A DNA stretch of 56,075 nucleotides, counting the filler, from Rhizaria sp. SCN 62-66 (lineage: Eukaryota): NCBI GenBank assembly GCA_001724265.1. It is 4 parts of 4 records of this genome, joined end to end, with 100 filler letters (N's around TTAATTAATTAA, not from the genome) between each part and the next. Parts side by side here need not be neighbours in the genome. Positions count along the whole stretch, not along the records: positions 14,262 to 38,738 come from MEDY01000708.1; positions 38,839 to 49,016 come from MEDY01000709.1; 2 more parts are not named here. One strand, 5' to 3'. The notes under the pieces are model-generated. The model saw only the letters and a list, made by a program, of their open reading frames with translations. It was not told the origin of the DNA and did no database searches. The translations under genes and the position numbers were made by a program. Positions 1 through 49,016 of the stretch are shown piece after piece (position 1 is the stretch's first letter; each line of letters begins with the position of its first letter).

Positions 1-1
1 G

Positions 2-15546: not shown

Positions 15547-16981
15547 ATGTTTGTTCACGAGCGTGCAGCTGAGCTGAAGGCTCGCTCACAGTTTGCGCTG
15601 ATTTCCTTCTCCCGCACCCTTGTCCGCGGGATCGTCAGCGCGGCCGATGGCGTACGTCTCTCTTTCTCTCTCTTGACCTCAACAATCCCTTCATTTCCCG
15701 ATGTGAACGTACTCATACCCAACAAATGACTTACCCGTTTGCGACTTTATTCGATCTGTTTGCTTTCTGTTTTCTTTTCTTCTGCGGACACAGACCGTCC
15801 ACTTCCTGAGCTCTATCGCGAGCCGCAAAGTCGGCCGCCGCAAGAGCAGCCGCAAGGCGCGCCGCGTCACCATCACGGGCTCGGCCTCCCCGTCACCCGC
15901 GCGGCCGCTGACGACACATCCGGCGCGGCTGGACGAGATGGCGCGCAAGCTCGAGGACGCCAACGCGGCGACGCTGGAGCAGGAGGAGCGTGTTCGTCAG
16001 CTCGAGCGTGAGAACGCCGCCGCGCAAGAGGCCGCCGCTGCTGCTGCGGCCGCCGCGCAGGAGGCCGCGGCCGCCAAGGAGGCCGAGGTTATGGCCCAGC
16101 TCAAGGCACTGCAGAAGCAGATGGAAGATTTCATGGCGCTGCAGGCGCGCACGGCACAGCAGCAGCTCGAGGCCGCCGCGGCCGCCGCGGCCGCCGCTGC
16201 CGCCGCCGCAAGCGCAGGCATCCCGCCCCCGCCGCCGAATCTCTTCGACGACGACGTACCCGCCGCCGCCGCCGGGGGCGCGCCGCCGCCGCCGCCGCCC
16301 GACTTCGACTTCAACTTCGACCTCCCCAGCGACGTTCTCGTCATCTCCAAGCCCAGCAAGACCGCCAACGCCAACGCTAACGCGCCCGCAGGCATGCGCG
16401 GGCTCGTGCTGCCCCCGCCCGGCGAGCGCCCTCCCGGATGGGGCAAGCGCGTCGAGCGCCAGGTACGCATATACTTGCGACATTCACGTTAAATTCCAGC
16501 AATTCTGCCTGCCGCTAGATTCTGACTATTTGTTTTTGTTTTTGTTGTTTTTTGTTTTTGTTGTTGTTCTTTGCTCTTTGCTCTCACCTCTAGGAGCGCC
16601 CGCTGCCTGCGCCGACGGGCCCGATGAACTTTGCTGAGTTGATCTCGCGCCAGGGCGGCAAGTCTGCGCTGCGCAAGACCGACGTGCAGCGCTCCCCGGG
16701 TGGCACTCCAGTGCATAAGGAGAAGAAGAGTGACTGCGAGCCCTTCACCACGAAGCTCCGTGAGAAGTTCAAGGTACGATATAAACGCCGTGAATTTTCG
16801 CATGAATCCAAACTATTGCCTACTCCATTTCATTAAGAACATCTTACTTTGATATTTATTCTTAATTCTTTTATACTAACTTGAATCTGTGTTGTGGTGT
16901 CACTTTGTTTCTTCTGTGTAGAACGTCAACATGCCTGCCGAGGTCCTGAACGACGAGGACCACGAAAACTGGGCCGCTTAA
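15547..16981 (+). CDS. PRR11/MTFR1-like proline-rich protein with coiled coil and C-terminal WH2-central-acidic (VCA-like) tail; exons 15547-15651, 15794-16462, 16594-16773, 16922-16981
   Basis: Three GTACG...AG phase-0 introns join the exons into one ORF ending TAA. It has a coiled coil (LEQEERVRQLERE), polyproline tracts, MNFAELISRQGGKSALRKTDVQRSPGGTP...FTTKLREKFK (resembles the PRR11 C-terminal LRKVDVERSPGGTP...ALRRKF motif as I recall it) and a C-terminal DEDHENWAA. Confidence 0.75.
15652..15793 (+). other. Spliceosomal intron, 142 nt, GTACGT...CAG, phase 0
   Basis: Pyrimidine-rich; removal joins ...SAADG to TVHFLSS... in frame with the 15938 ORF. Confidence 0.8.
16463..16593 (+). other. 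Spliceosomal intron, 131 nt, GTACGC...TAG, phase 0
   Basis: T-rich with a long TTTTG tract; joins KRVERQ to ERPLPAP in frame. Confidence 0.9.
16774..16921 (+). other. Spliceosomal intron, 148 nt, GTACGA...TAG, phase 0, TACTAAC branch site at 16874-16880
   Basis: AT-rich with a canonical branch heptamer; joins REKFK to NVNMPAE. Confidence 0.9.
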
Positions 16982-18131
16982 ACAAAGCGCCCCCGATAAA
17001 CGTCATAATTTTAAGCTCTTGCTCTTAATCAAGACCGGGATAAGCTCCATAACAACAACCACTCGAGTTTGAGGACATCTTTCGTAGAGGCTGTGTCACT
17101 CTGGCTCGTGGAGCGAGGTCACATGTTGGATGCGGAAAGCAGCGACACATGCATTTTAAGCATCACAAGACCACGCATTTTCTAAACGAAATAGTAGTAC
17201 TAATAACATCTCAAAACCAGTTCGCACGGATCGCGTGTGGACACAAAAACAATACCAAAACAAAATACACTGTAGTACGTACATCAAGTAACTTTCACGA
17301 TTGCGTTTCGTAACGTATTTGTGGGTGCTCGGTCACTCAGTCATTGAGCAGAGCTTCAATCATAGCATTGCTACCTGATTTCGCAACCAGAATCTTAGCA
17401 ATATTCATCAACACTCTTTCGTAGGAGCAACTGGATTCGCCAATGCGAGTCACTTTCCATCGTTACAATGCTGTCGGAACTGCTGGTTCGATTGAAAACC
17501 TGGATTCTCGAAGTAATGCCACGTGTGAGAGTTCGTTTATATTTGTTCACTGTTATAATCAAAGCCAGTTGATGCAATGTTATGCTTTAACTTTGCTGTT
17601 ATCTCACATTGATGGCGTTGATAGCTTCTCTCTGTAGTGAGGGGTGTTAGATGACGTTTGTGGTGGAAATCATCAAGGCGATTTTCGAGATCATACGTCG
17701 TCTCATGGGATTAATATGAAGATTTTAAGAAATAATCCCCAAGATACATTACGAGTACAATGCCAATTTAAGTTTGTGAGAGCTTCGCAGCAAGGGTTTT
17801 ACGTCTTAATGATCAAATATGCTTTTCACCACAAAACGTTTTTCCATGGTTTCGGATATTGCGAGCATCCACAAAGAGGAGGGTCGCTTTGTACACAATT
17901 AAGAGTAGCCCACAAAGACAGCCGAATCAACTGCCATAAATTGTTTTCAATAGTTCATTTTAATTTATATACATTTACTGATTTTGTTATTTCTATGGGA
18001 GCTTCTACTTATCTCTACACGGCCTCTAAGCAGAGTCCTTGACAAGTCTGTGTCTGACCGTTTGCATTCCTGTCTTTTGCTGCGGCTCCAGGTTTTAACT
18101 CAGACTCGATACAGATACCCCTCGCATATCT

Positions 18132-21100
18132 ATGAGCAACTCGCGTCGCAAGCTTGCTGACAAGGCCCGCGCGCTTCTGCAGGATGACATCGACGACATT
18201 CGCAACGAGAACCTCGCCAACCCTGCAATGCACAAGGGCGGCCGCGGCAGCAACGGCGGGGGCTACGACGACGACGTCGACGACTACTACGACGATGATG
18301 ACGAGTATTATGACGAAGACTACGAGTACTACGACGAGGGTGACGCCGACGCGGACGCGGACCTCGATGGCAACAACAACAGCGTGGGTGGTGCCACTAC
18401 TGCCCCCGCTGCTTCATCCTCAGGCAAGCAGCAGCAGCAGCTGCCCGCCTTCAACGGCGCCATGGTGACCGATGACCCCGCGCTGGCGGCCGCCGACTTC
18501 ATGTTTGACGACGACGACGATGGCGAGTTTGCGCCCCAGCTCGGCTCTCATAGTGATGAAGCGGGCGCGGACGTGGCCGCCGGCGCGCACGACATCACCG
18601 ACGCCGCGACCGACGCGGCCCGCGCCGCCGCCAGCTCCGGCTCTACTGCTGTCACTGCTGGTGCTGCTGCTGGCGCCGCTGGTGCTGCTGGCTCTGGCGC
18701 AATCCGCCGTGCCGCGGCCCCGGCCTCTGCCCCTGCTGCGCCCGTCGCGCTCGACCTCACCACTATCACAGTGCCCTCCCCGGCCACTGCCGCTGCCGCC
18801 ACGCCGACGACGGCGACGGGGACGGGGACGGTGACTGTGACGTACCGGCGCGCGCGCTTCGCGGACCGGCTGGGCGCGCTGGCAGACGACGTGCTGACGC
18901 GCATCTGCGACTACCTCGGCAACAGCCAGGCGCACTTCACGCTCTACGTCCTCTCGCGGGCGTGCGCGCGCTTCGTCAGCACCAAGGCGATGAACTTCGC
19001 CGTGCCGCTGCACAAGCTGCCACCGCGCGTCGTCCTGCACGGGCTGCGGCGCCTGCGCACCGTGCCGACGCTGAACCTGGCCAACTGCACGCGGCTGGCG
19101 ATCCTGCCGCAGATCGCCGCCGCCGTCGACTGCCGCGCCGTGCGCTCGCTCTCGCTGGCCAACCACAAGCTGCTTACGCCCGTGCTGCTGGGCGACCTGG
19201 TCGAGCGCATGACGGCGCTTGCGCACATCGACCTCAGCGGCTCCAACGCCACCGACTCGTGCCTAGACCCGCTGCTCGCCGCGGCGGCCGCGTCGCTGCG
19301 CAGCGCCGACGTGTCGGACACGAAGCTCACGACCAGCGGGCTGCTGCGGCTGCTGCGCGCGTGCCCCGTGCTGGAGCGCCTTGTTGCGCGCGGACTGCCC
19401 GTGTCGCTCGAGCTCTGCGCCGGGCTCGCGCGCCACGCCGCGCTGCGCAGCGTCGACCTCTCGCGCTGCCGCAGCCCACATGGCGTGCTCATCGTCTTCC
19501 CGCCCGCCGCGCCGCTGGCCGAGTTCGTGTGCAGCAGTCCCGCGCTGCCGGCGCTCACGCTCAGCTGCGCGGGCGTGCGCACCGTGCGCGTTGACCGCGC
19601 GCCCGCCGGCTTTGCGCTCACGCTCGCCGTCCCGGCCGCGGAGACGCTGAGTCTCGAGCGCGGCCGCAGCGACACCGAGGTCACGGTGATGCCGTACTTC
19701 TCTGAGCCCACGGCGCTGCTGAAGCGCGACGCGGCGGCGACGGTGGTGCTCGACTGCACCGATCTCGCTCGCCCCAGCACGTGGAATGCCGCGCCCGGCT
19801 CGCGGTACCACGAACTGTTACTCAACGAGTACGCGAACAATGTGCGGAAGATTGAGCACCGCGCCACGCGCGCGCCCGCGCATCCGCTGCTGCCGCGGCT
19901 CAAGACGCTCAGTCTTGCCGGGTGCAAGTACGCGCCTAACACGCTGTCGCAGCTATTTGCCCACGCACCCGCGCTCAAAACGCTCAACCTCGAGGCGTAC
20001 AAGGAGACGGAGCGCCGGCTGTGGCTGAGCATGATGGCCGGCAACGCGCTGCAGAACCTGACGGCGCTGACCATCAACCCGTACGCGGTGATCCCGGCCG
20101 CCGAGAGGGATCGGCTGATTGACGTCATGTCCGCCGCGGTGTTCGAAGACGAGCAGCGCGCCGCGCGCGACGCTCAGTACAACAACAGCAACAGCAACGA
20201 CAACGATGATGATGACGATGTCTGGGGCCCGAACCGCAACCACGACAGCGACCCGTTTGGTCTCGGTGCCATCGACAGCAGCTTTGCTAAGAGTTCCAGC
20301 GGCGGCGGCGGTGGCGATGAGGCTGACGCGCGCAGCAGCTTCGACGTGCGGTCGTTCGCGCTGTCCGACTCCGCGAGCGCGTACTCATACGCTTCGGCTA
20401 ACGCGATCCGCGCGCTCGCCACAGGCGCCGTTACGGCGGGCGTCAGCGGGCTTGACTTTACCGCCGCGCGCGCCGCCGTCGCGGCCTTCAACCGCGATAA
20501 CGCGCGTCCGCTTGACTGGGACACGTGCTCCGTCGCCTCGGTGCGCTCGGCGCTCTCCGCGGCGGCCTCGCTCGCCAACAGCAGTATGGCCAACGATGCC
20601 AACGCTAATAAGGGCGGCGCCAAGAGCGCTGCCTCTCGCACGCGTTCCGTCGCGGGCTCCATTGCGGGCTCGAGCGGCGGCTTCAGCCTGGTGTCCAATA
20701 TCAGCACGCAGAGCGTTAGCAGCCTGGGCTTCGGCTGTGTCGCATCGTCGTCGATGCAGTTTGTGTCGCGACAGCCCGCGGCGCTGGTGGCGCCCGCGGC
20801 CGGCACCCGCGCCGCCCGCGCCGCCGCCGCCGCCAAGCGCGCCCGCCTCGCCAGCAACAGCAACAGCAACAGCAACAAGAGCAACAGCAGTAGTGGCTCG
20901 TTGCGTGACAGCTGGGTCGACTTCAATCTGACTGATGACTTGGAAGATGACGCGGACCTGGCGCTCACGCTCACGCCCTCGGGCGCGGCGCGTGTGATGA
21001 GCAGCGAGGCCCCCAGCGAAACGCTTAGCCGCGAGCTGAGCCGGGCCCTCACCGGTGACACCGAGGATACCGACGCCGACGCTGCTGTGACGGTGGCGGT

Positions 21101-21602
21101 GGCGCGCGAGACTGCGGTTGCTACGGGCTCCAAGGTCAGGGCTGCTCCAACCGCCGGTGCTGCGGCCGCTGCGCCTGCGCCTGCGGCTGCGCAGGCGACG
21201 GCGACTGCGACTGCTTCCCCCGTTCCTGAGGATGACGACGAGGATGGGCAGGGGACTGACTTTGAGTTCGATGCCATCAGCTTGACTAGCAATGGTGGCT
21301 TTCAGAAGAAGTCCACGGCGGCCGCGACGGTTGCTACGCGTGACGCTCCGGCGCCCAGGGCTGAGTCGGCTGAGTGTGACTCCGGCGCTGTCGAGGCTGA
21401 TGGGGCCAAGGCTGAGGTCGTGAAGACGGGCGCTGACGGCGGCGTTGCGGGCGTGTTCGCGCCGCGCACGTGGATGGACGCGCCGCTGTGGAACGCGGGC
21501 GCGGCGAAGCTGGCCGTGTTCGAGCCCCTCAAGGACTGGGATCCGATCGAGGACAACGAGGACGACAACAGCGTCGGTGACGAGTTCGAGTTGCTCGAGT
21601 AA
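18132..21602 (+). CDS. F-box / leucine-rich-repeat (FBXL-like) protein, 1156 aa, intronless
   Basis: F-box-like LGALADDVLTRICDYLG...LSRACARF, followed by LRRs (LNLANCTRL, LSLANHKLLT, IDLSGSNATD, VSDTKLTTSGLLRLLRACPVLERL, VDLSRC, LKTLSLAGC). Acidic/Tyr-rich N-terminus and disordered C-terminus; ends TAA. Confidence 0.8.
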   Translation: MSNSRRKLADKARALLQDDIDDIRNENLANPAMHKGGRGSNGGGYDDDVDDYYDDDDEYYDEDYEYYDEGDADADADLDGNNNSVGGATTAPAASSSGKQQQQLPAFNGAMVTDDPALAAADFMFDDDDDGEFAPQLGSHSDEAGADVAAGAHDITDAATDAARAAASSGSTAVTAGAAAGAAGAAGSGAIRRAAAPASAPAAPVALDLTTITVPSPATAAAATPTTATGTGTVTVTYRRARFADRLGALADDVLTRICDYLGNSQAHFTLYVLSRACARFVSTKAMNFAVPLHKLPPRVVLHGLRRLRTVPTLNLANCTRLAILPQIAAAVDCRAVRSLSLANHKLLTPVLLGDLVERMTALAHIDLSGSNATDSCLDPLLAAAAASLRSADVSDTKLTTSGLLRLLRACPVLERLVARGLPVSLELCAGLARHAALRSVDLSRCRSPHGVLIVFPPAAPLAEFVCSSPALPALTLSCAGVRTVRVDRAPAGFALTLAVPAAETLSLERGRSDTEVTVMPYFSEPTALLKRDAAATVVLDCTDLARPSTWNAAPGSRYHELLLNEYANNVRKIEHRATRAPAHPLLPRLKTLSLAGCKYAPNTLSQLFAHAPALKTLNLEAYKETERRLWLSMMAGNALQNLTALTINPYAVIPAAERDRLIDVMSAAVFEDEQRAARDAQYNNSNSNDNDDDDDVWGPNRNHDSDPFGLGAIDSSFAKSSSGGGGGDEADARSSFDVRSFALSDSASAYSYASANAIRALATGAVTAGVSGLDFTAARAAVAAFNRDNARPLDWDTCSVASVRSALSAAASLANSSMANDANANKGGAKSAASRTRSVAGSIAGSSGGFSLVSNISTQSVSSLGFGCVASSSMQFVSRQPAALVAPAAGTRAARAAAAAKRARLASNSNSNSNKSNSSSGSLRDSWVDFNLTDDLEDDADLALTLTPSGAARVMSSEAPSETLSRELSRALTGDTEDTDADAAVTVAVARETAVATGSKVRAAPTAGAAAAAPAPAAAQATATATASPVPEDDDEDGQGTDFEFDAISLTSNGGFQKKSTAAATVATRDAPAPRAESAECDSGAVEADGAKAEVVKTGADGGVAGVFAPRTWMDAPLWNAGAAKLAVFEPLKDWDPIEDNEDDNSVGDEFELLE

Positions 21603-22040
21603 GAGGCTTATGTAGCGATTTATCTTGCGAGTAGAATATTTTTCAGTTTGTATACAGTAGATTTGATATTGAATACACATAATAATACGTGCGTGGTTCC
21701 CATCTTCAAGTTGAAGTCGCATTGAATACGTCTGTAACGTAACACAGCGTTGCGAGACTTTTTTGTGGTCGGATGGCGCGGTTGGACGGCTTGAGAAGTC
21801 GGCCAGCAACACAAGGATCGGAAGCTATGTCATCAACGAAATTACATTGTTTTGAGGCAGGTTATGAATTTAATGCACTGTTTTCTGAATAATATCGTTT
21901 ATGATTTTCAACAAACCCTCATCTGGCATCGCACAACTTTCAAGACGCGACCTTTTCCTCGCTCCACAGTCGCACAACTTTATCACCAGGAATTTTGACC
22001 AGGCGCGAGCACTTTTGCCGTCTTTGAGCAGCGCTTTGGG

Positions 22041-24875
22041 ATGCGTTTCACGATTGGCGACCCCGGCCTGGAGGTTATCTTCCCGTATGACTACATCTAC
22101 CCCGAGCAGAAGGACTTCATCGAGCACGTCTACCGCACCCTCGTCCAGTCCCGTCTCGGCTCCGGCGCCGAGAACACCGGCGCGCACTGCGTCATCGAGA
22201 TGCCCACCGGTACGGGCAAGACGGTCTCGATGTTGTCCGTGTTGCTGGCGTACCAGTACAAGTACCCGGACGTGGGCAAGATCGTCTACTGCACGCGCAC
22301 AGTGCCCGAGATGACCAAAGCGCTCGAAGAGCTCAAGCACCTCGTCGCTTACCGCGAGCGCGAGATCCTCGCCGACCAGGCCGCGTACCGCCGCGCGTAC
22401 CCGCACCTGTTCACTGAAGACGCCCTTGCGCGCGCCTCTGCGGCCTCGGTCGCTGCGGCCGCCACCCGCGACGCCGGCGCCGCGTCCTCGCTGCAGCAGC
22501 AGCAGCAGGCGCTGACCGTGGGCGTGGATATTGCGGACCCGGCCGTGATGCGCTCGCCGAGCATCCTGGGCGTGTGCCTCAGTTCGCGCCGCAACATGTG
22601 CATCCACCCCGTCGTCGCGCAGTTCGACCACCAGGAACGCGTCGATACGCTCTGCCGCACGATGACTGCACACTTTGTCCGCGAAAAGAAGCGCGACAAG
22701 CTCGCGCGCGACCGCGGCAGCTTTCCCACCAGCGGCGCTCACAGCACCACGACGGCGCACTCAGACAACAGTCCCCGTCTCAGTACGAGTGCGAGCGCCA
22801 ATTCAGTGCCGCAGCCGGTGCCTGGCGCCAGCTGCGGCTCTTGCGCCAACAACGCCAGCTGCAGCAGTGGCGGCTCCAGTGCGGGCGCGCCGCTGCGGCC
22901 GACGGGCGGCAGCACGAGCGCGACCGGCGGCGCGGGCGCGGGCACGGTCCCGGCGCCTCTGCCTGACTTGGAAGAGCTTGACCGGGTGGGGCTGTGCTCG
23001 GCGTACGAGAACCTCGAGGCGAACGGACAGGACCTCGCGCTGACGGGCGTGTACACTATCGGTGACCTCAAGGCGCTGGGCACGGAAAAGCATTGGTGTC
23101 CTTACTTTGCGGCGCGGCGGCTGATCTCGGTGGCGGACGTCGTGGTGTACAACTACCACTACATGCTCGATCCGAAGATCGCGGGGCTGGTCAGCAAGGA
23201 CATAAGCAAGGACTCGATTGTGGTGTTTGACGAGGCGCACAACATCGATAACATCTGCATCGAGGCGTTGTCACTCACGCTTAACAAAGGTCTCATCTAC
23301 GCCGCCGGCCGTAGTCTTAACAAGCTACGGCATCTCACGCAGGAAGCCGAGGCGAATAACAACAAGCGGCTGAATGACGAGTACCAACAGCTGCTGAGCT
23401 CGATGACGGCGTCCTCTGCCATCTCGGAGGACGTCGCGCGCCTCGCGGCCTCGCCAATTTTGCCCACGGACATGCCCGCCGACGCGATCCCGGGCTCGAT
23501 CCGCCGCGCTAAGCACTTCATCTTGTTTCTGAAGACGTTTGTTGAGTACCTCAAGGCCAAGATCGACGGCAAGGAAGTCAAGTCGCAGACGCCGCCGGCG
23601 TTTTTCCTCGACTACGAGCGCGAGACCAAGGTGGCTGATGTGACAGGGCTGCAACACTCGGTGGACCGGCTCTCACTGCTGCTTAGCACGCTCGAGGTCG
23701 CCGACATGGACGAGTTCACGCCGCTGATGAAGATCTGCTCGTTTGGCGCACTGGCCGCGACGTACGCGGAGGGATTCGTGGTGCTGTTTGAGCCCGTCGA
23801 CGACCACGGACTGGCGGACCCGCGGCTGATGCTTTGCTGCGTCGACGCCGCGCTGGCGATTCGCCCCGTGTTTAGCAAATACCGCTCCGTGATAATCATG
23901 TCTGGCACGCTGTCGCCGCTGGATATGTACCCCAAGATGCTTGATTTCCGCCCCGCTGTGGCCGAGTCGTTGACCATGTCACTGTCGCGCGCGCTCGTGC
24001 TGCCGCTGGTTGTGTCCAAGGGCAACGACCAAAACCCGATCACGACGTCGTTCAGCGCGCGCGAGGACAAGTCGATCACGACCAACTACGGCGGGCTCGT
24101 CTTTGCGCTCGCGTCGAACGTGCCCGACGGCGTCGTGGTCTTCTTCCCGTCGTACAGCTACATGGAGCGCATGGTGACGCAGTGGCATGCGTTGGGCATC
24201 CTGAGCAAGATCGGCGAGCGCAAGCTCATTTTTCTCGAGACCAAGGACATCGAGGAGACGACACTCGCGCTCGCGGCGTACAAGAAGGCTTGTATGTCCG
24301 GCCGCGGAGGCATCTTCATGTCTATTGCGCGTGGCAAGGTCGCCGAAGGCATCGACTTCAGCGGTCCCCTCGGCCGCGCCGTGGCGCTGATCGGCGTGCC
24401 GTACCAGTACACGCGGTCACGCGTACTGCTCGCGCGGCTTGAGTTCCTGCGCACCAAGCACGACATCTCCGAGAGCGACTTCCTGCACTTCGACGCGCTG
24501 CGGCAGGCGTCACAGTGCCTGGGCCGCATCGTCCGCAGCAAGAGCGACTACGGACTCATGGTGTTCGCGGACCTGCGGTACTCGCGACAGGACATGCGGC
24601 GCAAGCTGCCGCGGTGGATCCAGCAGTTCATGCTACCCGAAAACCTGTCGGTGTCGACCGAGGCCGCGATGCACGCCGCGCGCGGGTTCCTGCTCAAGAT
24701 GGCGCAGCCGCATAACAAGGCCGAAGACCTGGGCACCATTCTGCTGTCTGAGGAGCAGGTCAACGCGCGCATCAGGGCCGACAACGCCGCTAGGGACCTC
24801 CACGGTATTGCTAACGCCAATGCTATTGCCAGTGTGAACTCGAACCACGAGGTCAAAGCGATGGTGGACGAGTAA
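22041..24875 (+). CDS. XPD: TFIIH helicase subunit XPD (Rad3/ERCC2), 944 aa, intronless
   Basis: N-terminal FPYDYIYPEQ, Walker A EMPTGTGKT, YCTRTVPEM, 4Fe-4S ligands (MCIHP, LCRTMT, LCSAYEN, WCPYF), FDEAHNIDNICIE, SGTLSPLDMYPKML, RGKVAEGIDF, QCLGRIVRSKSDYG. Confidence 0.97.
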   Translation: MRFTIGDPGLEVIFPYDYIYPEQKDFIEHVYRTLVQSRLGSGAENTGAHCVIEMPTGTGKTVSMLSVLLAYQYKYPDVGKIVYCTRTVPEMTKALEELKHLVAYREREILADQAAYRRAYPHLFTEDALARASAASVAAAATRDAGAASSLQQQQQALTVGVDIADPAVMRSPSILGVCLSSRRNMCIHPVVAQFDHQERVDTLCRTMTAHFVREKKRDKLARDRGSFPTSGAHSTTTAHSDNSPRLSTSASANSVPQPVPGASCGSCANNASCSSGGSSAGAPLRPTGGSTSATGGAGAGTVPAPLPDLEELDRVGLCSAYENLEANGQDLALTGVYTIGDLKALGTEKHWCPYFAARRLISVADVVVYNYHYMLDPKIAGLVSKDISKDSIVVFDEAHNIDNICIEALSLTLNKGLIYAAGRSLNKLRHLTQEAEANNNKRLNDEYQQLLSSMTASSAISEDVARLAASPILPTDMPADAIPGSIRRAKHFILFLKTFVEYLKAKIDGKEVKSQTPPAFFLDYERETKVADVTGLQHSVDRLSLLLSTLEVADMDEFTPLMKICSFGALAATYAEGFVVLFEPVDDHGLADPRLMLCCVDAALAIRPVFSKYRSVIIMSGTLSPLDMYPKMLDFRPAVAESLTMSLSRALVLPLVVSKGNDQNPITTSFSAREDKSITTNYGGLVFALASNVPDGVVVFFPSYSYMERMVTQWHALGILSKIGERKLIFLETKDIEETTLALAAYKKACMSGRGGIFMSIARGKVAEGIDFSGPLGRAVALIGVPYQYTRSRVLLARLEFLRTKHDISESDFLHFDALRQASQCLGRIVRSKSDYGLMVFADLRYSRQDMRRKLPRWIQQFMLPENLSVSTEAAMHAARGFLLKMAQPHNKAEDLGTILLSEEQVNARIRADNAARDLHGIANANAIASVNSNHEVKAMVDE

Positions 24876-25207
24876 ATGCCCAAGTAGCAGCTCCATTTGT
24901 GATCAACCCTTGATGTCTGGCGACAGGATTTTGTTTCGATTAGTGTAAAAAAAAACACACATATTTCAAAATGATTACTTAGACTTTTTATTTTAAGACT
25001 TTTTCTTTCACTCTTGGACGAGCACGAACACATGTAGTTTTATGATGGCTTAGTTTAATACACACGACTGTACGTTCACTAGTATCAATTCAAACTAGTA
25101 AGATGAAGACTAATAGTTGAACTTTGTATTTAAATAAGAATAAATTAAGCTGTTTGTGATGTTTGACTTTAAATAATAGTTGCAGCGTGCTCCGAGTCCT
25201 CTCCATC

Positions 25208-32065: not shown

Positions 32066-32577
32066 CGGCGCTACAGTATCAGTGCGGTTATGGGTTTACT
32101 GGGATTGAGGGAACGGACGGCTGTGGGGAAGAGCGACAGCGAGCAAGTGCAGGCCACAAGAGTCGAAGTGAGGGCAAGAGACATGAATAATACGGCGGTA
32201 TAAAGTGATCCTGACGATTCCTAGTTCATTAACAGTTAGTTTGTAAGCGGACCGACTACGTGTGAGCGCAAAATGCGATTTGTCGGATGTATGACCACGT
32301 TTGCAAGGACTTTAGCGAGACGGACTTCGTCCAACTTCGGTCTGCAGTCGGTCGCAACTCTTTTTTCGGTCCTCAAACGGCCTCCCCTCCTCGTCGTAAC
32401 GGTTTCCAAAAAACGCATATGCAGCACTGCCATGATCGTCTGCACTTAAAGTTACGCCTATTTCCAGATATATTTTGAATTAATCTATGCATTATTCTTA
32501 TTATACCTCCAATTATCTTGATCTTCTTCTTCTTTGCGCGTAGTTCAGCACCCCAGTCCAAACTTACTTTCAGCTAG
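32066..32577. promoter_or_regulatory. Short divergent (head-to-head) intergenic region, candidate bidirectional promoter
   Basis: About 510 bp between the start codons at 32065 (-) and 32578 (+). No specific motif identified. Confidence 0.4.
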
Positions 32578-37494: not shown

Positions 37495-37981
37495 CTGATT
37501 AAAATCTGATACATAGTTCCTTTTGTCGCTTTCACAAGCGACCTCCGAGTCAGCTCAGAAATGGACTGCAGCGGCAACGAAATCCAGGAAATTATTACGA
37601 AGGATAAATAGATCAAACAAAGAGTTTTCTCACTTGAATTGAGATATATTCTATCTTTGGCTACGGGAAAAATGTATTCATTATTTAATTCTGGTTTACC
37701 TTTCTTGAACTCAAGATATACCTTGAAACATGTTTTGCTTGTGTCGGCTGCACACTGGCCCGAGTTGGATGGAAACGATCAAGATTGCGAAATAATCATC
37801 GTCACAACAAGCTAAATTTCACGAGATCGAATATAAATCCGCGTTTTAAACATTTCTCGTTCATTATACATGGCATCATGCGCGGTGTGGTGTAATCTAC
37901 GATCATTTCTTCAGCTCACCCCCGTTGCATGTTCTTTGTATTAATATGGTTTGTTCTTCAAATCACAAAGTCTTTGTCGAG

Positions 37982-38738: not shown

Positions 38739-38838
38739 NNNNNNNNNNNNNNNNNNNNNNNNNNNNNNNNNNNNNNNNNNNNTTAATTAATTAANNNNNN
38801 NNNNNNNNNNNNNNNNNNNNNNNNNNNNNNNNNNNNNN
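38739..38838. other. Artificial contig linker (N-TTAATTAATTAA-N)
   Basis: 100-bp N spacer, motif at 38783-38794. Confidence 0.98.
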
Positions 38839-41221
38839 CGAGCGCGGCGTCGGTGAGCCCGGCGCCCGCGAGCCGCACCGCGCGCGCGCAGTCAGGGCCC
38901 ACGGTGCCCGCCGCGAAGGCCGCCGTCAGCGCCGCCGCCGCCGCGGCCGAGGCGGCAACGCCCGGCGGCAGCGCCGCCGCAGGCCCCAGCAGCGCCGGCG
39001 GCGCCGACTGGCTGTGGCCGTGGCCGCGGCCCGAGGCGGCGCCGCAGGTCGCCCAGGACGCCGCCGCGAAGAGCGCGTCTAGGACGGCGCGGGAGGACTT
39101 GAGCCCGCGCGAGGCGCTGCCCACGTCGACCGCAGGGGACGCGAAAGGACTGCTCGTGCTGACGGCGATGGCGGCCGCGCTGGCGCCCGCGTTGCTGATG
39201 CTGTTGCCGCTGGCGAGGGCGCGCGCGAAGGCGGCGTTGGCGGCCGCGGCGTCGAGAGCGGGCAACGCGGCCGCGGTCTGCGCCACCGCCGCCGCCGCCG
39301 CCGCGCTGCTGCTGCCGCCCGCGCGGGCAGCGAGATTACCCGTGGTGTTGGAGGTGGAGAGCGGGAGCGTGGCGTCGCGCGGGTAGAATGGGTGTCCGGC
39401 GTGCTCGGCGGGCTCGTACACGAAGGCGAAGCACGTCTGGCGCATGTCCTTGGTGCGCACCTGCAGCACCCACGGCGCGGACCGCCGCACCGGCGCCGGC
39501 ACCGGCACCGGCACCGCAGGCAGCAGGCCCGGCACTGCGAACACGCTCCTCGACACACTCGACACACTGGCACTGTCGCCGCCGTCACCGCCGTCGCCGC
39601 CGTCGGCGGTTGCGGGGAGCGCGGGCGCGAGGTGCGCGGCGGGCTGGTAGCGGTACGCGCGCACAACGTGCGAGCTCGAGTAGGCCGAGCGGACCAGCGC
39701 GTCGCTGCCCGCGGACAGCAGCAGCGGCAGCGCCTGCGCCGGGCCAACCTCCGCAGAGCCACCGCCGCGGCTGCTGGCACCGCTGCTGTCGCCGCAGTTG
39801 TCGGAGACGCCGGCGACCGAGGGGCCGAGCAGAGAGGAGCGCAGCGCGAAGGCGGTGATGGTCGCGTCCGCCGCCGCCACCGGGTCCCTCTCCTTCTCCC
39901 TCGGACTGGCGCTGGCGCTGACGCTGTTGGCGCTGGCGATGACGCTGACGGGGGCGGTCGTGGCGGAGACAGCGGCGGGGGTGGTGACCGTGACCGTGCT
40001 GGCGGTCACCGAGGGCTCCGCCTCAGCCTCCGCAGTCTCAGCTTCAGTCTCAGCATTCGCGTCGACAGCGTCAGCCTCAGCGTCAGCCTCGGCAGCCTCG
40101 GCAGCCTCGGCGTCCGCCTCAGTGTCGGCGCTGTCGGCGCTGCGGCTGCCTGGGCCCCGCGTGCTGACGCTCTTGCCCACCGAGCGGCCCGGACTCGCGG
40201 GACTGCCGCCAGCAGCGCCAGCGCCAGTGCCAGGGGTTGGGCTCGCGGCCTTGGCGTCGTCCCTGCTGCTGTTGCTGTCCTTGCCTTTGTCCTTGACGCC
40301 GTCCTTGATGCCGAAGAACGAGAGGAAGCGGCTGCCGACTCCGGCCTTCTTCGACGCGCTGCCGCCCGCTGCCGCCGCCGCGCCGCCGTTCGCACTGCCC
40401 CCGCCACCGCCCTGCTTGCTGTGAGCCGTGGCCGTGACCGTGAACTCGGCGCCGCCGCCGTCCTCGTCGTCCTCTAGCCCGGTGACTGTTTGCGATGCGC
40501 CTGGTGCGCCCGAAGCGCCAGCGGCGCCGGTGCGCGCGTGGCTGGCCGCCGCGCCGAGCCCGTGCTGCTGCTGCTGCCGCTGCTGCTGCTGCTGCTGGGC
40601 CGCGGCCGCGGCGGCCGCGGCTGTGCGCGCGTAGCGCAGCGCGAGCCCCGCGGCGGCCGCGGGCGCGGCGGCGGGCAGCGCGGGCGCGGGCCGGTAGCCG
40701 TGGCCCTCGACGACCTTGAGGCGATGCACGCTCTGCAGCGGCAGCGAGCAGTGCGCGCGCAGCAGCGGGTGCGCGGAGAGCGCCGCGGCGGCTGCCACGC
40801 TGAGGCGGCCCGAGGCGGGGCACAGCACGCGCGGCGTGAAGAGCAGCCGGTAGTTGGTCACACGTAGGGAGCCCGAGAGCACGCCCGGCACGCCCGTGAA
40901 CATGTTCGTGTTGTGCAACTGCTGCTGCTGCTGTTGCTGCTGGCCCTGCTGCGGCTCTGTCCGCTGTTGGTGTTGCAGAGTGAGCGCCTCCGAGAGGACG
41001 GCGGCGGGGAGGTCGAGCAGCGCCACGTCGGGCACCCAGAAGAGCACGTGCTCGCCTGGGTTCAGCGCTAGCGCGGCCTCGTCGTCCTCTGCCGCAGCCG
41101 CAGCCGTGGAAGCAGGAGCAGTTGCAGCAGACGCAGGCGCGGCGGCGGGCAAGGGGGAGAGCGGCACTGCGCTGGCAGCGCCGGCGGCGCCGGCGGCGCT
41201 CGCAGGCGGGCTCGAGCTCAT
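38839..41221 (-). CDS. Myotubularin-family-like protein, N-terminal PH-GRAM region only (3' truncated by contig end)
   Basis: LNPGEHVL...LSGSLRVTNYRLLFTP...SLPLQSVHRLKVV and, far downstream, LQVRTKDMRQTCFAF match the myotubularin PH-GRAM pattern (LLPGE, GTLTVTNYRLYF, VPLGVI, CKDMRNLRFA). The phosphatase domain is not in the contig. Likely start MSSSPP at 41221. Confidence 0.72.
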
Positions 41222-42210
41222 GATGCGTGGGAGAGCGGAGAGCGGCGGCGCAGGGTGCTGGGGGAGCGCGGGGAGAAGCTTAGTGCGGCTGCGCGCGGTG
41301 GGTGCGAGTGAGTGTGTGACGTTGACAAAGGAGTGTGTGTTGAGAAGGGAAGCCGGGGGCTGCAAAAGCGCAGATATGAGGGGGGCGGTGAGGGTGTAGA
41401 GAGTAGCGCAACAAGGGCAGTAGAGAATTGTGAGATTTGTGCAATATATATCGTGCAGAACGGGCAACGCTGTGCTTTAAGTTAGGGACGATGACGAATA
41501 GGAGTGGCAAAGAGGGCGGTCACACGAGACGTAACAGGCGGTCCCAAAAGTGGTATTATCTATGCCTAAAAGTGGACAAACTGATCAGAAAAAGTAGATA
41601 GAGGTGTACCATAAGCATTATACTGCTGCACACCACAAATTATCAAGGAAACACGAGCTCTCGGCACATAAAACGCCGCTGCAGCAGCTGCTCGAGATGC
41701 GGGAAGCGACAGCGACGCAGACAGGCGGTCGATTGTCGACTGGTCAGTGACCGAAGACGGCTTGTGGTGACGCCTGTTGTGATTGGCGGACAAGAGTGAC
41801 AGGAGCGGGGAGAAAGGGGGATCGCGAAGAGGGGCGCTGTGACGTGGGAATAGCATGTATTTTGGTGTGTGGACTGCCATGCTTGTGGTGTCTGTCTTGC
41901 TTTTGGTTAAACTGTGCAGTACCCTAGGAAAGCGCCTCTCATCGGAGTTTAAAGAAACCAACCTTAAGGACCTCTTCCGTTTTCTCAGCTGTCCAAATTA
42001 CTAGCATTTTCGCAACAAATGTTATGCAAACCGACACACCCGTCTTTTCACTGTTATTTCCCTTGCATTTACTTTGTAATTTTGTGTTTATACTCGTCTA
42101 ATCCTTCAGCTTACACGTATATTTCCCTTTTTTATTGTCCCGGCCATGGGCTCCCTCCACCCTCCTCCGCATTGTCTCCGGATGCTGCTCGTGCCGCGTA
42201 GACACGGCAA
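41222..42210. promoter_or_regulatory. Divergent intergenic region between the myotubularin-like and PPEF genes
   Basis: About 990 bp head-to-head spacer, with pyrimidine-rich leaders on each coding strand. Confidence 0.35.
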
Positions 42211-45200
42211 ATGGACCCCGGTAGTGCCCCCCAAGGCCGCTCTCCACCGCGCTCCCCGACGGCGGGCCGTCTGCGCATTGTGCCCGCGACCCGCAAAGCG
42301 CGCCAGCCCGCCGCGGCGACCGGCGCCGGCGGGCACCACAACGGCGACAGTAGTGGCAGCAGCGACGACGACGTCGGCAACGCCGACGACGCCAAGGCCG
42401 GCAAGGGCGCCAAGATGGGCGACAACTCCTTCGCGGCCTTTGTCAGCGCCACCTCGCCCACCGGCGCTGACACCCACAGCCACGGCCACGGCAGCGGCGG
42501 CAACGGCGGCCACAGCCCCAGCAGCGCGGGCGGCAAGCAGTTCAACGTGCGCCTATGGCCCTCGCGGCCCACGGCGTCAGCCACGGCGGACTCGGCGCTG
42601 GGGGGCGACGAGGCCAGTAGCACGGTGTCGGGCACCAGCTCCGCCTCCGGCACGAGCGCCAGCTCGGCTCGCGGCAAGCGCGCGCTCTCGCACCTGGACG
42701 CCGTGTGCCGCGTGCAGTCGCTTGTCCGCGGCAAGCTCGCGCGCCTCGCCGCGCAGAAGCAGCGCCTGCTAGTCGCCTGGCACGAGCTCGACCGCAAGGA
42801 GGAGGCGGAGCTCCAGGTACGGCCAAGAATCTTAAACTTCGATATCCACTTTGTGTCGAATGAGCAACAAGAACCGCCGAGTCATAATTATATCTTTACG
42901 ACCTCAATTATTTTTAAACTCGATGTCTATCGATACGAATAAGTTATTTCGATATAATCACGGTGTATTTGTCTATATTCTTTTTGATTAAAATTATATC
43001 TGCCTATATCTTACCCGAAATCCGACATGTATGTTTCCGATTGTCTTCATCGCTCGCTCAGGAGGGCCACCGCGAGTATTCCTTGCTCAAGACACAGATG
43101 GGCCTGGCGCAGGTCGACGCGGCGCGCGCCGAGGCCGAGGCCGAGGCCAACGCCGTCCTTAACACCCCCGCCGCCTCCGCTTCTGCCTCGTCGTCGTCGT
43201 CGTCGTCCTCGGCGCTGACGGCGGCTGCGCAGGCCGCGCGGCTGGCGGTGGGCGACACGCTCTCCGACGCCAAACGCCGTCTGCGGCGCCAGCAGCACGA
43301 CGGCGACGACGACGAGGAGGACGACTACGACGCCGGCGACGACGCGGACGACGACGCCGAGGACGAGGAGGCGGAGGACGAGGAACGCCGGCAGCGCCGC
43401 CTGGACCGACTCGGCGCCGGCGGCTCCGTCCGCAGCGCGATCGAGGACGCCAACGCGCGCATCGCCGCTGCCGCGGCCACGCTCTCGCTCTCGGCCACCA
43501 CGACGGCCCCCGGCGCCGCGGGCTCTAGTGGCAGCGCGCTGCTGGTGCCCACCGCACCCGCTCCGTCGCTGTCGGGGCTGATCGTGCCGACCACGCTCAC
43601 GCCCGCCGCCTCGGTGCTCTCGTACGCGCCCGGCGCGGGCTTCCACGCCGGCGCCGCGCAGCAGCAGCATCAGGCGGGCGCGGCGCCCGCCTCGACGCTG
43701 TCGGTCGTCGCGGCAGCCGAGCGCTCCGGGATGGCGGCCGCGACGCTGCTGGCCGAGGAGGGCCTGGTGGCCGCCGAGACCAGCGCCGAGTACGCCGACC
43801 GTGTTAAGGCGCGCCTCATGCAGCTACGCCTGCTGCGCGAGTTCCGCTCCATCGCCTCGCCCACGGCCGCGCGCTCCGGCGCCGAGGGCCGCGGCCGCGC
43901 GCAGGACAACAGCGGCGGCGCTAGAGCGGGGACGACGGCGGCGCGGCGCGCGAGTCTGCACGACGAGAGCGACGATAGCGGCGACGACGACGATGAGGTG
44001 AGCAAGAGCTACCGCGCAGCATCCGTGGCCTCTGGCATGTCGCTCGCGTCGGCCGCCTTCGACGACAAGGCCTCGACCGCTGCGGGGCTTTCTCTCGAGG
44101 ACATCTTCAGCCAGGTACGATAAAATCGCAACAAATATGTCATATATTAGCACTTTCTCACAAAACGAATCGTTAAATGATTCCTTTCTTTTTAAAAAAT
44201 TTACATTTTAATCTCTAATCGATGACTTTTGGCTTGTCTCCCTGTGCAGGACTTCTGGGCCGCGTCCGCGCAAGTCGACCAGACGGACCGATTCCGCCAG
44301 TTCGCCGCCACGGCGGCGCCGCGCCTCGCTGAGCTGCGCCGCACAGCCGGCAGCGCCCCGCGCTCGCGCCGCGGCTCCGCGCTCGGCAACACCAACAACA
44401 ATATCAGCGGCAACAACAACAGCAGCGGCAGTACGGTCGCGGGCAGCGCGAGCGGCAACGGCGGGCTGGGCGGCGGCATGCAGCGCGCCGAGGTGCGCGC
44501 GCTGAGCCGCGCGCGGCCCATTGACGCGGCCTGGGTGGCCAAGCTCACTGACGAGCTGGCCGCGGGGCGCGCGCTATCGCTGCGCGCGGCAGAGCGGCTC
44601 GTGCTTCTGGTCTTCCCTCTGCTCGCGCGCGCTCCCAACGTGCAGGAGTGCACGGTGGCGCGCAACGGCAAGGTCACCGTGGTGGGTGACCTGCACGGAC
44701 AGCTGGCAGACCTGCTCTCAGTCTTTCGCCTCAACGGCGTGCCCTCGCCGCAGAATCAGTACATCTTTAACGGCGACTGGGTCGACCGCGGCGCCCACTC
44801 GTGCGAGTGCCTGCTGCTGCTGCTCGCCTGGAAGGTGCTGTTGCCCGGCTCCGTGTTCCTGAACCGCGGCAACCACGAGGCGGCCGACATCAACTCGCGC
44901 GACGGGTTCGAGACCGAGGTGCTGCTCAAGTACGGCCCCGACCTTTTCGCGCTCTTCTCCGAGCTCTTCGCGTGCGCGCCGCTGGCTACGGTCATCCGCG
45001 CCTCAGACGCCGCGCAGGAGGCGCTGCGGGCCAGCCAGCAGGTCCTGCCCTCGGTGCTCGTCCTCCACGGCGGGCTCCCGGCCTCCGCGCCGCGACTCTC
45101 GCTGGCCGACCTCAACGCCGTGGACCGCTTCCACACGATCCCGCCGCCCAACTCGCTGCTGTGCGACCTGCTCTGGTCCGACCCCGGCCGCCGCCGCGGC

Positions 45201-46571
45201 TCGCGGCCCAACCCGCGCGGCGCGGGCGTTGAGTTCGGCCCCGACGTCACCGCGGGCTTCCTCGCGCGCAACAACCTCTGCATGCTCGTCCGCTCGCACG
45301 AGTGCGTCGACAACGGCTGGTCGCTCATGCACGAGAACCGCTGCGTAACGGTCTTCTCCGCGAGTAACTACTGCGGTGTGACCGGCAACCAGGGCGCCTA
45401 CGCGCTCTTCGAGGGTAACCTCCGGCCCACGTTCGTGACGTACTTCGCGCAGCACGAGGTCTTCGCGGCGCGCTCGTCGACGCGGTACCGGCTGCTGGAA
45501 CAGGACGTGGTGCGCAAGCTCATGGACCGCATCGCGATGAACCGGCTCGACTTGGTTGAGCACTACGCGGCCGCCGCACGCCACAACCGCGCGACGCTGC
45601 CCGACTGGCCGTGCTCGGACGAGGTCGTCACGCGCGCGCAGTGGGCCGCCGGGCTGGCCGAGGTGCTGGGACTCGATGTCCCCTTCCTGCTCTTCCAGGA
45701 GCAGCTGGGGCTGCCCGAGCGCGGCGTGCTTGGCGACGAGAAGGGCGCCATCAACTTCATGACCTTCCTCGCGCCCTTCCAGCCCTCGCACCAGGCGCTC
45801 AAGTCGCTCAACCTCACCAGCACCAGCAACGCCCGCGCCGCGGGCCGCCAGGGCGGCAGCGACTGCGGCAGCGCCAGCGGCAGCTTCGCGGCCGCGTCGG
45901 TGATGACGGGCGTCTCGCTGAGCGACCCGGCGGCGCTGGAGGCGGCGCGACAGGAGGGCTCTGCGGAGCGCACGGCGCTGCAGCACCTTTCGACGCTGTT
46001 GTTTGCGCACAAGTACGAGCTGCAGTCGGTGTTCCGCTTCTTCGACCACAACGGCGACGACTCGGTCTCGCTGGACGAGTTTGCCGGTGGGCTGCTCGCG
46101 CTCGTGCGCCTCTTCCGCGCCCGCGCGCGCCTCGAGGCGCAGCAGCAGGAGCAGGAGGACGCTGCCGCAGCCGCCGCAGCCGCGTCGAGCGAACAGGAGC
46201 AAAAGAGCCGTGCGGCGGAGCGCAACAGCGCGGCGCTGACGCGTGCGGGAGTGTCGCTCGTGCCGCCCACCTTCTCGGCCGTGGCGTCGATGCCGGACCG
46301 CCCCACGCGGCGCTCGGCGCTGTCGGCGGCGCAGAAGAGCGTGCTGGGCCGCGCGTGGACGCTGCGCATGATGCGCCGCGTCGCGCGGCTCGTCGACCTC
46401 AACGGCGACGGCGAGATCCAGTACTCAGAGTTTTTTGCCCACTTCGACTACAGCGCGTCGGGCGCGTCGACGCTGCTGCAGGACCGCAGTGCGGACCCGC
46501 TCGCGGCCAAGTACCGCGCCACTTCCCCCTCAGCGCCGCAGATCACTTCCGTTGTCACGCGCGACCCGTAA
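42211..46571 (+). CDS. PPEF: Ser/Thr protein phosphatase with EF-hands (PPEF/RdgC family), ~1,326 aa; exons 42211-42816, 43062-44114, 44250-46571
   Basis: IQ-like motif VQSLVRGKLARL. PPP motifs GDLHGQ, GDWVDRG, RGNHE, LHGG, DLLWSDP, RSHE, TVFSASNY. EF-hand loops DHNGDDSVSLDE and DLNGDGEIQYSE. Two phase-0 GTACG introns; ends TAA. Confidence 0.92.
42817..43061 (+). other. Spliceosomal intron, 245 nt, GTACGG...CAG, phase 0
   Basis: AT-rich; joins EEAELQ to EGHREYS in frame. Confidence 0.85.
44115..44249 (+). other. Spliceosomal intron, 135 nt, GTACGA...CAG, phase 0
   Basis: AT-rich, CTAAT branch-like motif at 44215-44219; joins DIFSQ to DFWAAS. Confidence 0.9.
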
Positions 46572-47374
46572 CATGCAAAACGAAAAGTGTAGCATGTCTG
46601 AAGTGTGAAGGAGGTTAATTTGAATGAGGTTCAATTTCGTTTATGTGTTGCTTGAATTTGATGTTTGTTCGTTGTTTTTGTTGTGTTTTTTTCTTGTTTC
46701 TCTGGTTTTTTTATTCTGTACTATTACTATTCGCATTGTAACTTGCGGCGAGTCAACAATCATCATACTAGTGTGTGCATGTTTGTTGCTGCTCGTTGAT
46801 TTTGTTATTTTCCAATCACCCTGTTGCGCAGCCTCGTGGTTTTAGTCTATACGCATTCATATTGTAGTTCTCAAGTTACGGAGTTATGGTTTTTAGACTC
46901 GGAGCTCTGCGTCGCGTGTCTTCGTACGCTTTTGCATTTCTTCAGTCTTTGACTTTTAATTAAACTTCAAATAGTATGTTATGCACATACCTAACCATCT
47001 GTCATATGTCGCCGCTTGTTATGCCATGTGTAATTGTATTATAATGGCATGGCACTCTTACTTAACCAACTAGATGAATAAGAAGTTACGTGACTTCAGT
47101 GTAAGCTTTTATGAATACTGAAGATTGTACAGTGCGAGCGACAAAGAACGGACCCACAATACGCTTGATACTAAGTGATTTGGAAAAGCGACAACCATAA
47201 AAAACAAGCGCACAAGGCTCTTGGGATTTAAAACCCTTACATCAATAAAAATCTATAAATCGTCAAAAAATAATATATTGCTGTACTCAAATCCTAGGAT
47301 GCGGAATCCGGACTCAACATGCGGTATCATGAGATGGCCCGTGCAAATAAAATGTAATTTAGTTCATTTAGTCC

Positions 47375-47410
47375 GTCAATCTCTCCACAACATGTAGTGG
47401 AGAGATTGAC
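47375..47410. repeat. 36-bp near-perfect palindrome
   Basis: GTCAATCTCTCCAC-A-ACATGT-A-GTGGAGAGATTGAC: perfect 14-bp arms plus a palindromic core with one A/A mismatch. Confidence 0.9.
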
Positions 47411-48511
47411 TATGTTTTTGCAACATGCGAATGCAGATGCAGGAGTGATTAATGAAACGCGTTCCGCACGCGAAGAGAGATAAAGCGTTAGAAAATAGAC
47501 TGAAAACATCAATTCATGAGCGTTTTCTCGCATTCATTGTGTACCATTGAACTTCTGAGCGACTTCGACTCAGATATGACTCAGATATCCCTAAATATAC
47601 CCAGCATTTCAAGTAAAGAGTGATCCAGACATCATAAAGTTCAAAATAAGCATATTTACACAAATATATAAATATGTTCAGCTATAGAATATATAAATAT
47701 ATTTTTCAACCAGGTTATATATTAAAATATTTTGATCTGAATATGTTTATTATTTATTATACGATTTTAAATATAAAAGATGATCAAACAATGAAATTTG
47801 ATATTGTAAGCTCATTTAATTGTCATTATTTTTATGGCATAACATAGATATTTTCATTAAATGTAAAACAATTTGAACGAAAACTCCTGAGATGCATAAT
47901 TTTGAATTATTTTTTTTTTAAATTTACATAATAACATTATAAATTTATTTAACTAACACCACGCTGATTATTTTTACATAGAATAAAAATATTTTAAATA
48001 TTAAGTATGCTTTTTAATACAATGTGTACTTGTTTATATAATGTAAATAATTTGATGTTTTTTTTAAAATTGAAGAGACCTTCTTTCAACTAGATTTTGG
48101 GACAGTTAGCTGAGAAAACCCAACATTGTTGTACTATCTGTTGTAACTATCTGCATGTAATGTACACGTACATAGTGCTGTGCTTCTCTTTTGTTTCGTT
48201 TTAATGGTATATGGATCATTTGGAAGGTTTCAGTTTTCGAAATTCGAAAAATAAAGCGGAACAGCACCCTTCTGCTTTAGCACATGTAACAAGGCGCACA
48301 TTTCAGCGATTACGGTGCTCACTGGTACTCGCTAGTTGTGAGAAGCGAACAATAATTAACACAGAAGAAGGCAACTCAAAAGACAGAGTTGACAGACTTG
48401 CCTTCCTCCAACTCTGTCTTTTTGTAACTGGATTCAGTAAAACTAAAACTGGATTCAAATTTGTGAAAGGCGTCTAGATTGTGTATTTTTGCGTGTCAGG
48501 GGGCGTTTCGC

Positions 48512-49016
48512 TTACTCCTGGACGGGGAAGGAGAACTCAACCGCGGAGCGGGTGAGGCGGTTGTAGACGGCGGCAAAGGACTTGAGCTTGTCCTCAGTCT
48601 CCTTGGCATCCTTCTTGTCGACGAAGACCTTAAGGAGCTTGGACTGGTCCGCACGCACGCGGGTGCGCTTGCCGACGATGGAGGAAGGGAAGACGATGTC
48701 ATCGAGGATGGCAGCATGCACGGCGGTGAGGGTGCGCGACTGGGGGCGAGCAATGCCCTTGTACTGAGCCATCTGTGATGATGTAGAGATGATAGAGCAA
48801 GAGCAAAGCAAGTGGGAGTGCGCACAGATGAGAAGGTGAGCGTGAGAAGTGAATAGCAAGGCAAGACAACGGCGTATGTGGATGCAGCGGAGGTGTGGAC
48901 GAAAAAAAAAGATGTGAAGAAACGTACCTCGTTGGTGAGGATGGTGCGCTGGGCAATGAAGACGAAGTGGGTGTTGGCGAACTTCTTCTCGAGCTCGCGG
49001 GAGAGGCGGGGCTGGA
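48512..49016 (-). CDS. RPS7: 40S ribosomal protein S7 (eS7), 5' truncated; exons 49016-48928 and 48772-48512
   Basis: QPRLSRELEKKFANTHFVFIAQRTIL | ...RPQSRTLTAVHAAILDDIVFPSSIVGKRTRVRADQSKLLKVFVD...FAAVYNRLT...VEFSFP matches the eS7 signature; ends TAA. Confidence 0.96.
48773..48927 (-). other. Spliceosomal intron, 155 nt, GTACGT...CAG, phase 0
   Basis: Minus strand GAG|GTACGTTTC...CATCACAG|ATG; boundaries constrained by eS7 homology. Confidence 0.92.

Follow-up and report, generated by a model that had tools for sequence, protein, structure and literature searches.

Ten introns opening with GTACG in a genome stretch assembled as Rhizaria sp. SCN 62-66: a probable lineage-specific 5′ splice site

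The ten introns and their donor

The 56,075-base window analysed here (the whole stretch of DNA, taken from the assembly of Rhizaria sp. SCN 62-66, GCA_001724265.1) is composed of four pieces separated by runs of N at 14162-14261, 38739-38838 and 49017-49116. Gene models A to J were built on pieces 2 to 4, in which the exons have about 60-75% GC and the spacers and introns 30-45% GC, and ten introns were placed in these models, seven on the piece at 14262-38738 and three on the piece at 38839-49016 (Table 1). The 5′ splice site, or donor, of these introns is the subject of this report, as it reads GTACG in every case. We interpret it, with a probability of roughly 0.7, as the lineage-specific, near-invariant 5′ splice site AG/GUACG, free at position +6, of an intron-poor protist whose few introns are short and AT-rich.

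The initial annotation had listed ten donor hexamers on two contigs and described positions +1 to +5 as fixed, +4 as always C and +6 as free. Each hexamer is found exactly as listed at its coordinate and strand, and the description is borne out at all ten sites: +1 to +5 are invariant, and +6 is T in four introns, A in three, C in two and G in one. On the exon side of the junction, position -2 is A in 9/10 and position -1 is G in 8/10, so that the exon ends in AG in eight of the ten. The acceptors are YAG throughout (five CAG, five TAG) and follow T- or C-rich tails. Intron lengths range from 126 to 245 nt and intron GC from 0.29 to 0.48, and nine of the ten introns are in phase 0 according to the gene models of this analysis. 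The ten sites are U2-type (major) GT-AG spliceosomal introns; the consensus donor of U12-type introns, RTATCCTT, is found at none of them, all ten reading GTACGN. Intron density, as measured within the window, is 10 introns per ~30 kb of coding sequence or about one per gene, and genes B, C, G and J are single open reading frames (ORFs) of 880 to 1,520 codons.

Table 1. Introns and gene models of the window (a slash marks the exon-intron boundary; positions count along the window)
Feature	Gene or product	Position	Strand	Length (nt)	GC	Donor	Acceptor	Phase	Number of introns
Intron A1	gene A	15652-15793	+	142	0.43	ggc/GTACGT	acag/	0	
Intron A2	gene A	16463-16593	+	131	0.37	cag/GTACGC	ctag/	0	
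Intron A3	gene A	16774-16921	+	148	0.32	aag/GTACGA	gtag/	0	
Intron D1	gene D	30434-30601	-	168	0.36	cag/GTACGC (at 30601)	cgcag/	0	
Intron E1	gene E (ankyrin)	34062-34187	+	126	0.29	gag/GTACGT	tgtag/	2	
Intron F1	gene F (B-box)	38078-38277	+			aag/GTACGA	cgtag/ (at 38277, uncertain)		
Intron F2	gene F (B-box)	38383-38580	+	198	0.41	aac/GTACGT	catag/		
Intron H1	gene H (PPEF-type)	42817-43061	+	245	0.36	cag/GTACGG	ctcag/	0	
Intron H2	gene H (PPEF-type)	44115-44249	+	135	0.31	cag/GTACGA	tgcag/	0	
Intron I1	eS7 gene	48773-48927	-	155	0.48	gag/GTACGT (at 48927)	cacag/	0	
Gene A	function not assigned								3
Gene B	leucine-rich-repeat-like								
Gene C	XPD/ERCC2 helicase	21999-24875							
Gene D	function not assigned								1
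Gene E	ankyrin repeats								1
Gene F	B-box zinc finger								1 or 2
Gene G	function not assigned		-						
Gene H	PPEF-type phosphatase, weak IQ motif and EF hands		+						2
Gene I	ribosomal protein eS7, truncated by contig end								1
Gene J	RCC1 repeats								

Three of the junctions (H1, D1 and I1) are fixed by homology. H1 is exact, with P0124, P0125, P0126, P0127, P0130, P0131 and P0145 all aligning free of gaps across residues 202/203 of the spliced protein, where the script-spliced gene H product reads WHELDRKEEAELQ followed by EGHREYSLLK. The homologue search with gene D returned one relative, P0242, an uninterrupted ORF that is 64-71% identical. Its residues 3-178 align with exon 1 of gene D up to the last residue of that exon (...RRPDQ), and from residue 178 onward it aligns with the frame at the D1 acceptor (QALYLD..., the Q being the acceptor CAG read through). 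P0242, which belongs to another organism, thus reads straight over the junction, so that D1 is exact to the residue and the intron is absent from the relative; its contig matches in length (9,451 bp) that of an 80%-identical XPD relative and is probably the same one. The absence of D1 from the closest relative found points to a recent gain or loss inside this clade. In the eS7 gene, comparison with the protein chain 9axt_AK places exon 1 residues 1-27 at chain residues 76-102 and exon 2 residues 8-84 at 113-189; the 10 chain residues between these two blocks correspond to nine residues of the query, and the I1 junction is fixed within one residue.

The second intron of gene H joins a 399-codon to a 773-codon open frame and coincides with an AT-rich island at 44106-44236, its junction being crossed by one weak alignment only (P0136). 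In gene A, the first in-frame AG past the pyrimidine tract of A1 joins a 47-codon to a 232-codon open frame, and the intron contains an AT-rich island (15666-15785); the support for A1 is that of frame and composition, without homology or RNA. Removal of A2, which has its AT-rich island at 16474-16578, restores the frame, as does removal of A3, which carries TACTAAC 48 nt before its acceptor and is followed by a last exon of 19 codons. A contig from a complementary DNA (cDNA) library, X3 record 17 (220 letters), fits the window only at 16592-16773, the predicted exon between A2 and A3 being 16594-16773, with 30 unfitted letters before the fitted part and 8 after it; the two extra fitted bases are AG on either reading. 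This record looks like spliced cDNA across A2 and A3, although its run is rated "RNA? (probably DNA)".

For E1 the reading frame is no evidence, because its length is a multiple of three and it has no in-frame stop. In its low GC (0.29) and long T run, E1 resembles none of the coding stretches nearby. The gene E product of another assembly (P0243; 1,649 amino acids) translates straight through E1 and, when compared with the 1,638-codon read-through ORF of the window, differs only at codons 522-523, within the intron codons 495-537; the difference consists of an 11-codon insertion or deletion and two substitutions, and lies in the T run of E1. Similarity to the homologues of gene E ends at residues 492-498, and the representative search, which returned mostly ankyrin proteins, gave no homologue that bridges the E1 junction. 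A separate observation concerns P0247, which is 57% identical to gene E over about 33540-34061 and whose ORF ends in ...EYYAGK, with the stop three residues past the point aligned with the E1 donor. Judged from the protein sequence, the position of this stop would imply a donor GTAA, GTAG or GTGA, not GTAC, for any intron that P0247 shared with gene E in location and phase; such a shared intron would suggest, tentatively, that only the closer clade follows the GTACG rule.

Gene F can be modelled in two ways. A 32-codon exon begins with an ATG at 37983 and runs up to the F1 donor, after which an in-frame exon at 38278-38382 (35 codons) is possible. An in-frame TAG immediately precedes the exon that starts at 38581, and the B-box (PF00643, E 5.7e-05) begins at residue 2 of that exon, so that an intron must end at 38580. 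The alternative to two introns is a single in-frame intron of 503 nt, from 38078 to 38580, and F2, with its donor at 38383 behind an exon that ends in AAC, is the weakest of the ten.

Motif frequency and ascertainment

GTACG is a common pentamer in the window, occurring 126 times on both strands against ~109 expected, and introns were therefore sought without the motif. The exons (30,066 nt) contain 25 unused GTACG in sense and 33 in antisense, and AGGTACG does not occur in them in sense (0 cases). This commonness, together with a sample of ten introns only, is what speaks for an artefact of sampling or ascertainment, in which the donors would be degenerate genome-wide and the uniformity would come from GTACG having been used for finding the introns, or from an unrepresentative window. 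Introns in untranslated regions (UTRs), which lie outside the assessment and for which there is one candidate drop in GC without the motif, point the same way.

In a first motif-blind scan, low-GC islands were defined as 41-nt windows below 47% GC inside the gene spans of pieces 2 to 4. Eleven islands were obtained, nine of which coincide with introns of the set of ten; I1, with its GC of 0.48, is the one left unflagged. The other two islands are shallow, 58-59 nt long and situated where the ORF of gene E runs on unbroken, with no GTACG within 88 nt. A sense GTACG lies at most 15 nt from the 5′ edge of the island in 8/9 intron islands (null expectation 0.031 per island), and at 45 nt in the ninth (null 0.087). 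In a second scan, each GT flanked by 60% GC or more on its upstream side and by 42% or less on its downstream side was collected, which resulted in 33 clusters. GTACG is present in five of these, each of them belonging to one of the ten introns. The others would correspond, by their position against the gene models, to antisense acceptor sides, to gene ends, to gene starts viewed from the opposite strand, to piece 1 and to the AT-rich tail of piece 4; among them is the GC drop upstream of gene G that is taken up below.

GTACG thus marks the starts of the introns far beyond chance. The blind scan recovers nine of the ten and brings up no further intragenic intron candidate, the three homology-fixed junctions are independent of the motif, and if GTACG stood at 10% of donors the probability of 10/10 would be 1e-10. 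On these grounds an artefact is very unlikely, and the sampling fluctuation that the initial annotation had kept as its alternative does not account for this window. The ten out of ten give a one-sided 95% lower bound of ~0.74 on the frequency of the motif, and we infer that it is a property of the whole lineage.

Uniform intron ends could also descend from a mobile element, as in introners, whose copies would carry the GTACG end and owe their uniformity to recent common descent. The absence of D1 from a close relative is compatible with such a recent gain. However, all-against-all blastn of the ten introns reveals no intron family, nothing but T runs and words of 7-11 nt being shared (the best intron-intron match is 28 nt long, T-rich and has an E value of 0.009), and the lengths vary from one intron to the next. 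As the introns have no other sequence in common, the uniform donor is not inherited from a repeated element, and an introner-type origin is the most improbable explanation that we weighed.

Splice-site recognition and comparison with other lineages

According to a preprint, six lineages that have lost introns massively favour a donor whose pairing with U1 small nuclear RNA (snRNA) is not normal, U1 itself being changed in some of them (bioRxiv 10.1101/2022.06.08.495308). In the same text the standard U1 5′ end ACUUAC is kept in ~70 Saccharomycotina, Giardia, Trichomonas, Thecamonas trahens (+4C) and Mamiellales (GYGCGY), and a changed U1 is given for Entamoeba (ACAAAC) and for Mastigamoeba balamuthi (ACGUAC). 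Low intron density and a near-invariant donor that departs from GUAAGU at +4 are traits of this class, and both are present in the window. We infer that the donor described here is an instance of the same phenomenon as the homogenised atypical +4-pyrimidine donors of other intron-poor lineages.

Thecamonas trahens, an apusomonad, and Mamiellales such as Micromonas have C at +4 as here and a donor that mismatches the standard U1. Their genomes are GC-rich, as are the exons of this window. The Mamiellales consensus has Y at +2 and +6 and G at +3, whereas here +3 is A in 10/10 and +6 is free; in addition, the XPD and PPEF homologues of the window are not close to Thecamonas or Mamiellales. Saccharomycotina, Giardia and Trichomonas (GUAYGU) are likewise intron-poor and keep a standard U1, and their near-invariant donor of six letters departs from GUAAGU at +4 alone. 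In their GUAUGU, however, +4 is U and not C. These lineages also conserve a U at +6, and their branch point holds strictly to UACUAAC; here +6 is free and no branch-point motif is shared. GUACGU is itself reported as a non-consensus donor of Saccharomyces cerevisiae. A text search of the literature yielded no lineage with a GTACG or GUACGU consensus, sequence logos in figures and supplements not being text-searchable, and passages from rhizarian genome papers give intron densities and no donor motif.

By analogy with these lineages, the donor would probably be recognised by a U1 whose 5′ end is the standard ACUUAC, a sub-reading that we hold somewhat less firmly than the lineage-specific donor itself. 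This U1 would form pairs at -2, -1, +1, +2, +3 and +5, with the mismatch at +4 tolerated, and the preference for C at +4 would be set later, at the stage of the U6 ACAGA box and Prp8 or by proteins. The published +4-pyrimidine cases go both ways, and a rewired code is therefore possible for this organism, neither shown nor needed.

The rewiring could lie in U1, as the initial annotation had proposed alongside a change in U6. A change of its 5′ end from ACUUAC to ACGUAC would create seven unbroken Watson-Crick pairs with AG/GUACG, and the invariance of +3 to +5 in 10/10 donors, with AG at -2 and -1 in 8/10, delineates just the block that such a co-evolved U1 would pair. Precedents are found in the same preprint, namely the M. 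balamuthi U1 candidate ACGUAC and the Entamoeba U1 ACAAAC, which matches GUUUGU (bioRxiv 10.1101/2022.06.08.495308). The Mastigamoeba candidate is exactly complementary to the GUACGU found in this window, and Entamoeba resembles the present case in that its genome is intron-poor and its atypical donor almost universal. However, Mastigamoeba donors are mostly GUGCGC and its introns number ~2.5 per gene, unlike here, and both organisms are Amoebozoa. Most +4-pyrimidine lineages of that text, including both other +4C ones, moreover kept the standard U1, and the freedom of +6 counts, weakly, against a pairing of this kind. We consider a co-evolved U1 unlikely. The full re-coding of splice-site recognition, with an ACGUAC end pairing perfectly with AG/GUACG and possibly a loss of N6-methyladenosine from U6 as well, appears slightly more doubtful. 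It would, if true, be the third independent case of co-evolution between U1 and donor and the first outside Amoebozoa, in a genome where the donor is constrained and the branch point is not. Searches of the window with the Rfam models produced no snRNA (0 matches at gathering scores), and the five matches that appear at E up to 1 are at chance level and include no U1.

A change on the U6 side is another way to move +4 away from A, through an ACAGA box that is altered, or unmethylated after loss of METTL16 and/or SNRNP27K. The nucleotide at +4 is linked to METTL16 and SNRNP27K in a published analysis, where the loss of both genes in Saccharomycotina goes with a shift from A to U at +4 (PMC10581693); the tie between +4, the U6 ACAGA adenosine and these two proteins drawn in the initial annotation thus agrees with what is published, for A versus U. 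None of the ten donors has A at +4, as this explanation would have it. The published association, however, is between A and U and does not concern C. By simple reasoning, the central A of the box, whether methylated or not, has no Watson-Crick partner in a C at +4. The ACAGA box of U6 is, to our knowledge, almost universally invariant. A U6-side origin is accordingly improbable, and more so than a change in U1.

Several points weigh against a lineage-wide AG/GUACG donor read by a standard U1. The sample consists of ten introns from six genes on two contigs. The support for A1, F1 and F2 consists of frame and composition. A contig from a polyA RNA library (X1 record 1) is collinear with the DNA at 16668-16954, unspliced through A3, and is therefore unspliced RNA or DNA; low-depth RNA contigs compared with 15001-35000 show no clean GT..AG joint among those listed. 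The joints that were listed there have sides of 20-23 letters and ends other than GT..AG; they were read as repeats or as other organisms and are neutral on splicing. The unused sense GTACG in the exons mean that more than the pentamer is needed to define a donor. Upstream of gene G, on the minus strand, GC falls to AT at 41652-41667 without any GTACG; this could be a 5′ UTR intron lacking the motif, in which case it would be an exception to the GTACG rule, or merely a GC-rich leader. Classic lineages with a transformed donor usually constrain the branch point too, and a scan of the last 90 nt of the introns found CTRAY in 5/10 and TACTAAC in 1/10, with no shared motif. Finally, the argument for a standard U1 is one of precedent only.

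Why some intron-poor lineages fix atypical donors, and whether the splicing machinery follows, is an open question, to which a lineage with a strict +4C donor would contribute a further independent data point as well as a test, outside fungi, of the link between METTL16/SNRNP27K and +4. There is also a practical side, as gene callers of the prokaryotic kind miss these introns and translate across them (P0243, which includes E1, is an example), and the signal AG/GTACG...YAG would allow the gene models of this organism and its relatives to be corrected.

Affiliation of the organism and other features of the window

The named relatives of the XPD and PPEF proteins, at 35-51% identity, are from oomycetes, chlorarachniophytes, Plasmodiophora, labyrinthulids and green algae. 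In a quick XPD tree (35 hand-picked rows from a preliminary search, with no opisthokont or amoebozoan rows), the window groups with four environmental sequences at support 100, and this group sides with Chlorarachnion, Plasmodiophora and one EukProt row (split support 99). We take a position of the organism near Rhizaria as a lead only. Near-identical pieces are found in sequencing runs labelled activated sludge and wastewater, and in other assemblies genes of the window lie on contigs of up to 72 and 85 kb. A metagenome scan with the PPEF protein gave one distant locus (L001; 35% identity over 1.4 kb), and scans of genome contigs with XPD and PPEF gave no relative.

Piece 1 (1-14161) differs from the other pieces in its ~55% GC and has no AT-rich islands of intron-like depth. 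It is filled almost wholly by one ORF of ~4,500 codons, rich in S, T, A and V and with no Pfam match, which is parted from a 390-codon ORF, open at its 5′ end, by a change of frame at ~950-1000. This change looks like a frameshift or an insertion or deletion and not an intron, and piece 1 may come from another organism than pieces 2 to 4.

Two long AT-rich stretches of 29-43% GC, at 46581-48496 (1.9 kb) and 53733-56075 (2.3 kb), have neither a convincing ORF nor an Rfam match; the second one holds small patches of higher GC. The divergent spacer between genes G and H (41497-42210) includes a C/T-rich patch of ~200 nt and higher GC (41659-41859), followed on the minus strand by an AT-rich stretch. 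The XPD gene is a single exon of 944 codons, ~180 residues above the usual 740-800, and this long form is common to the window and the four environmental sequences, which together make up the fully supported clade of the quick tree.

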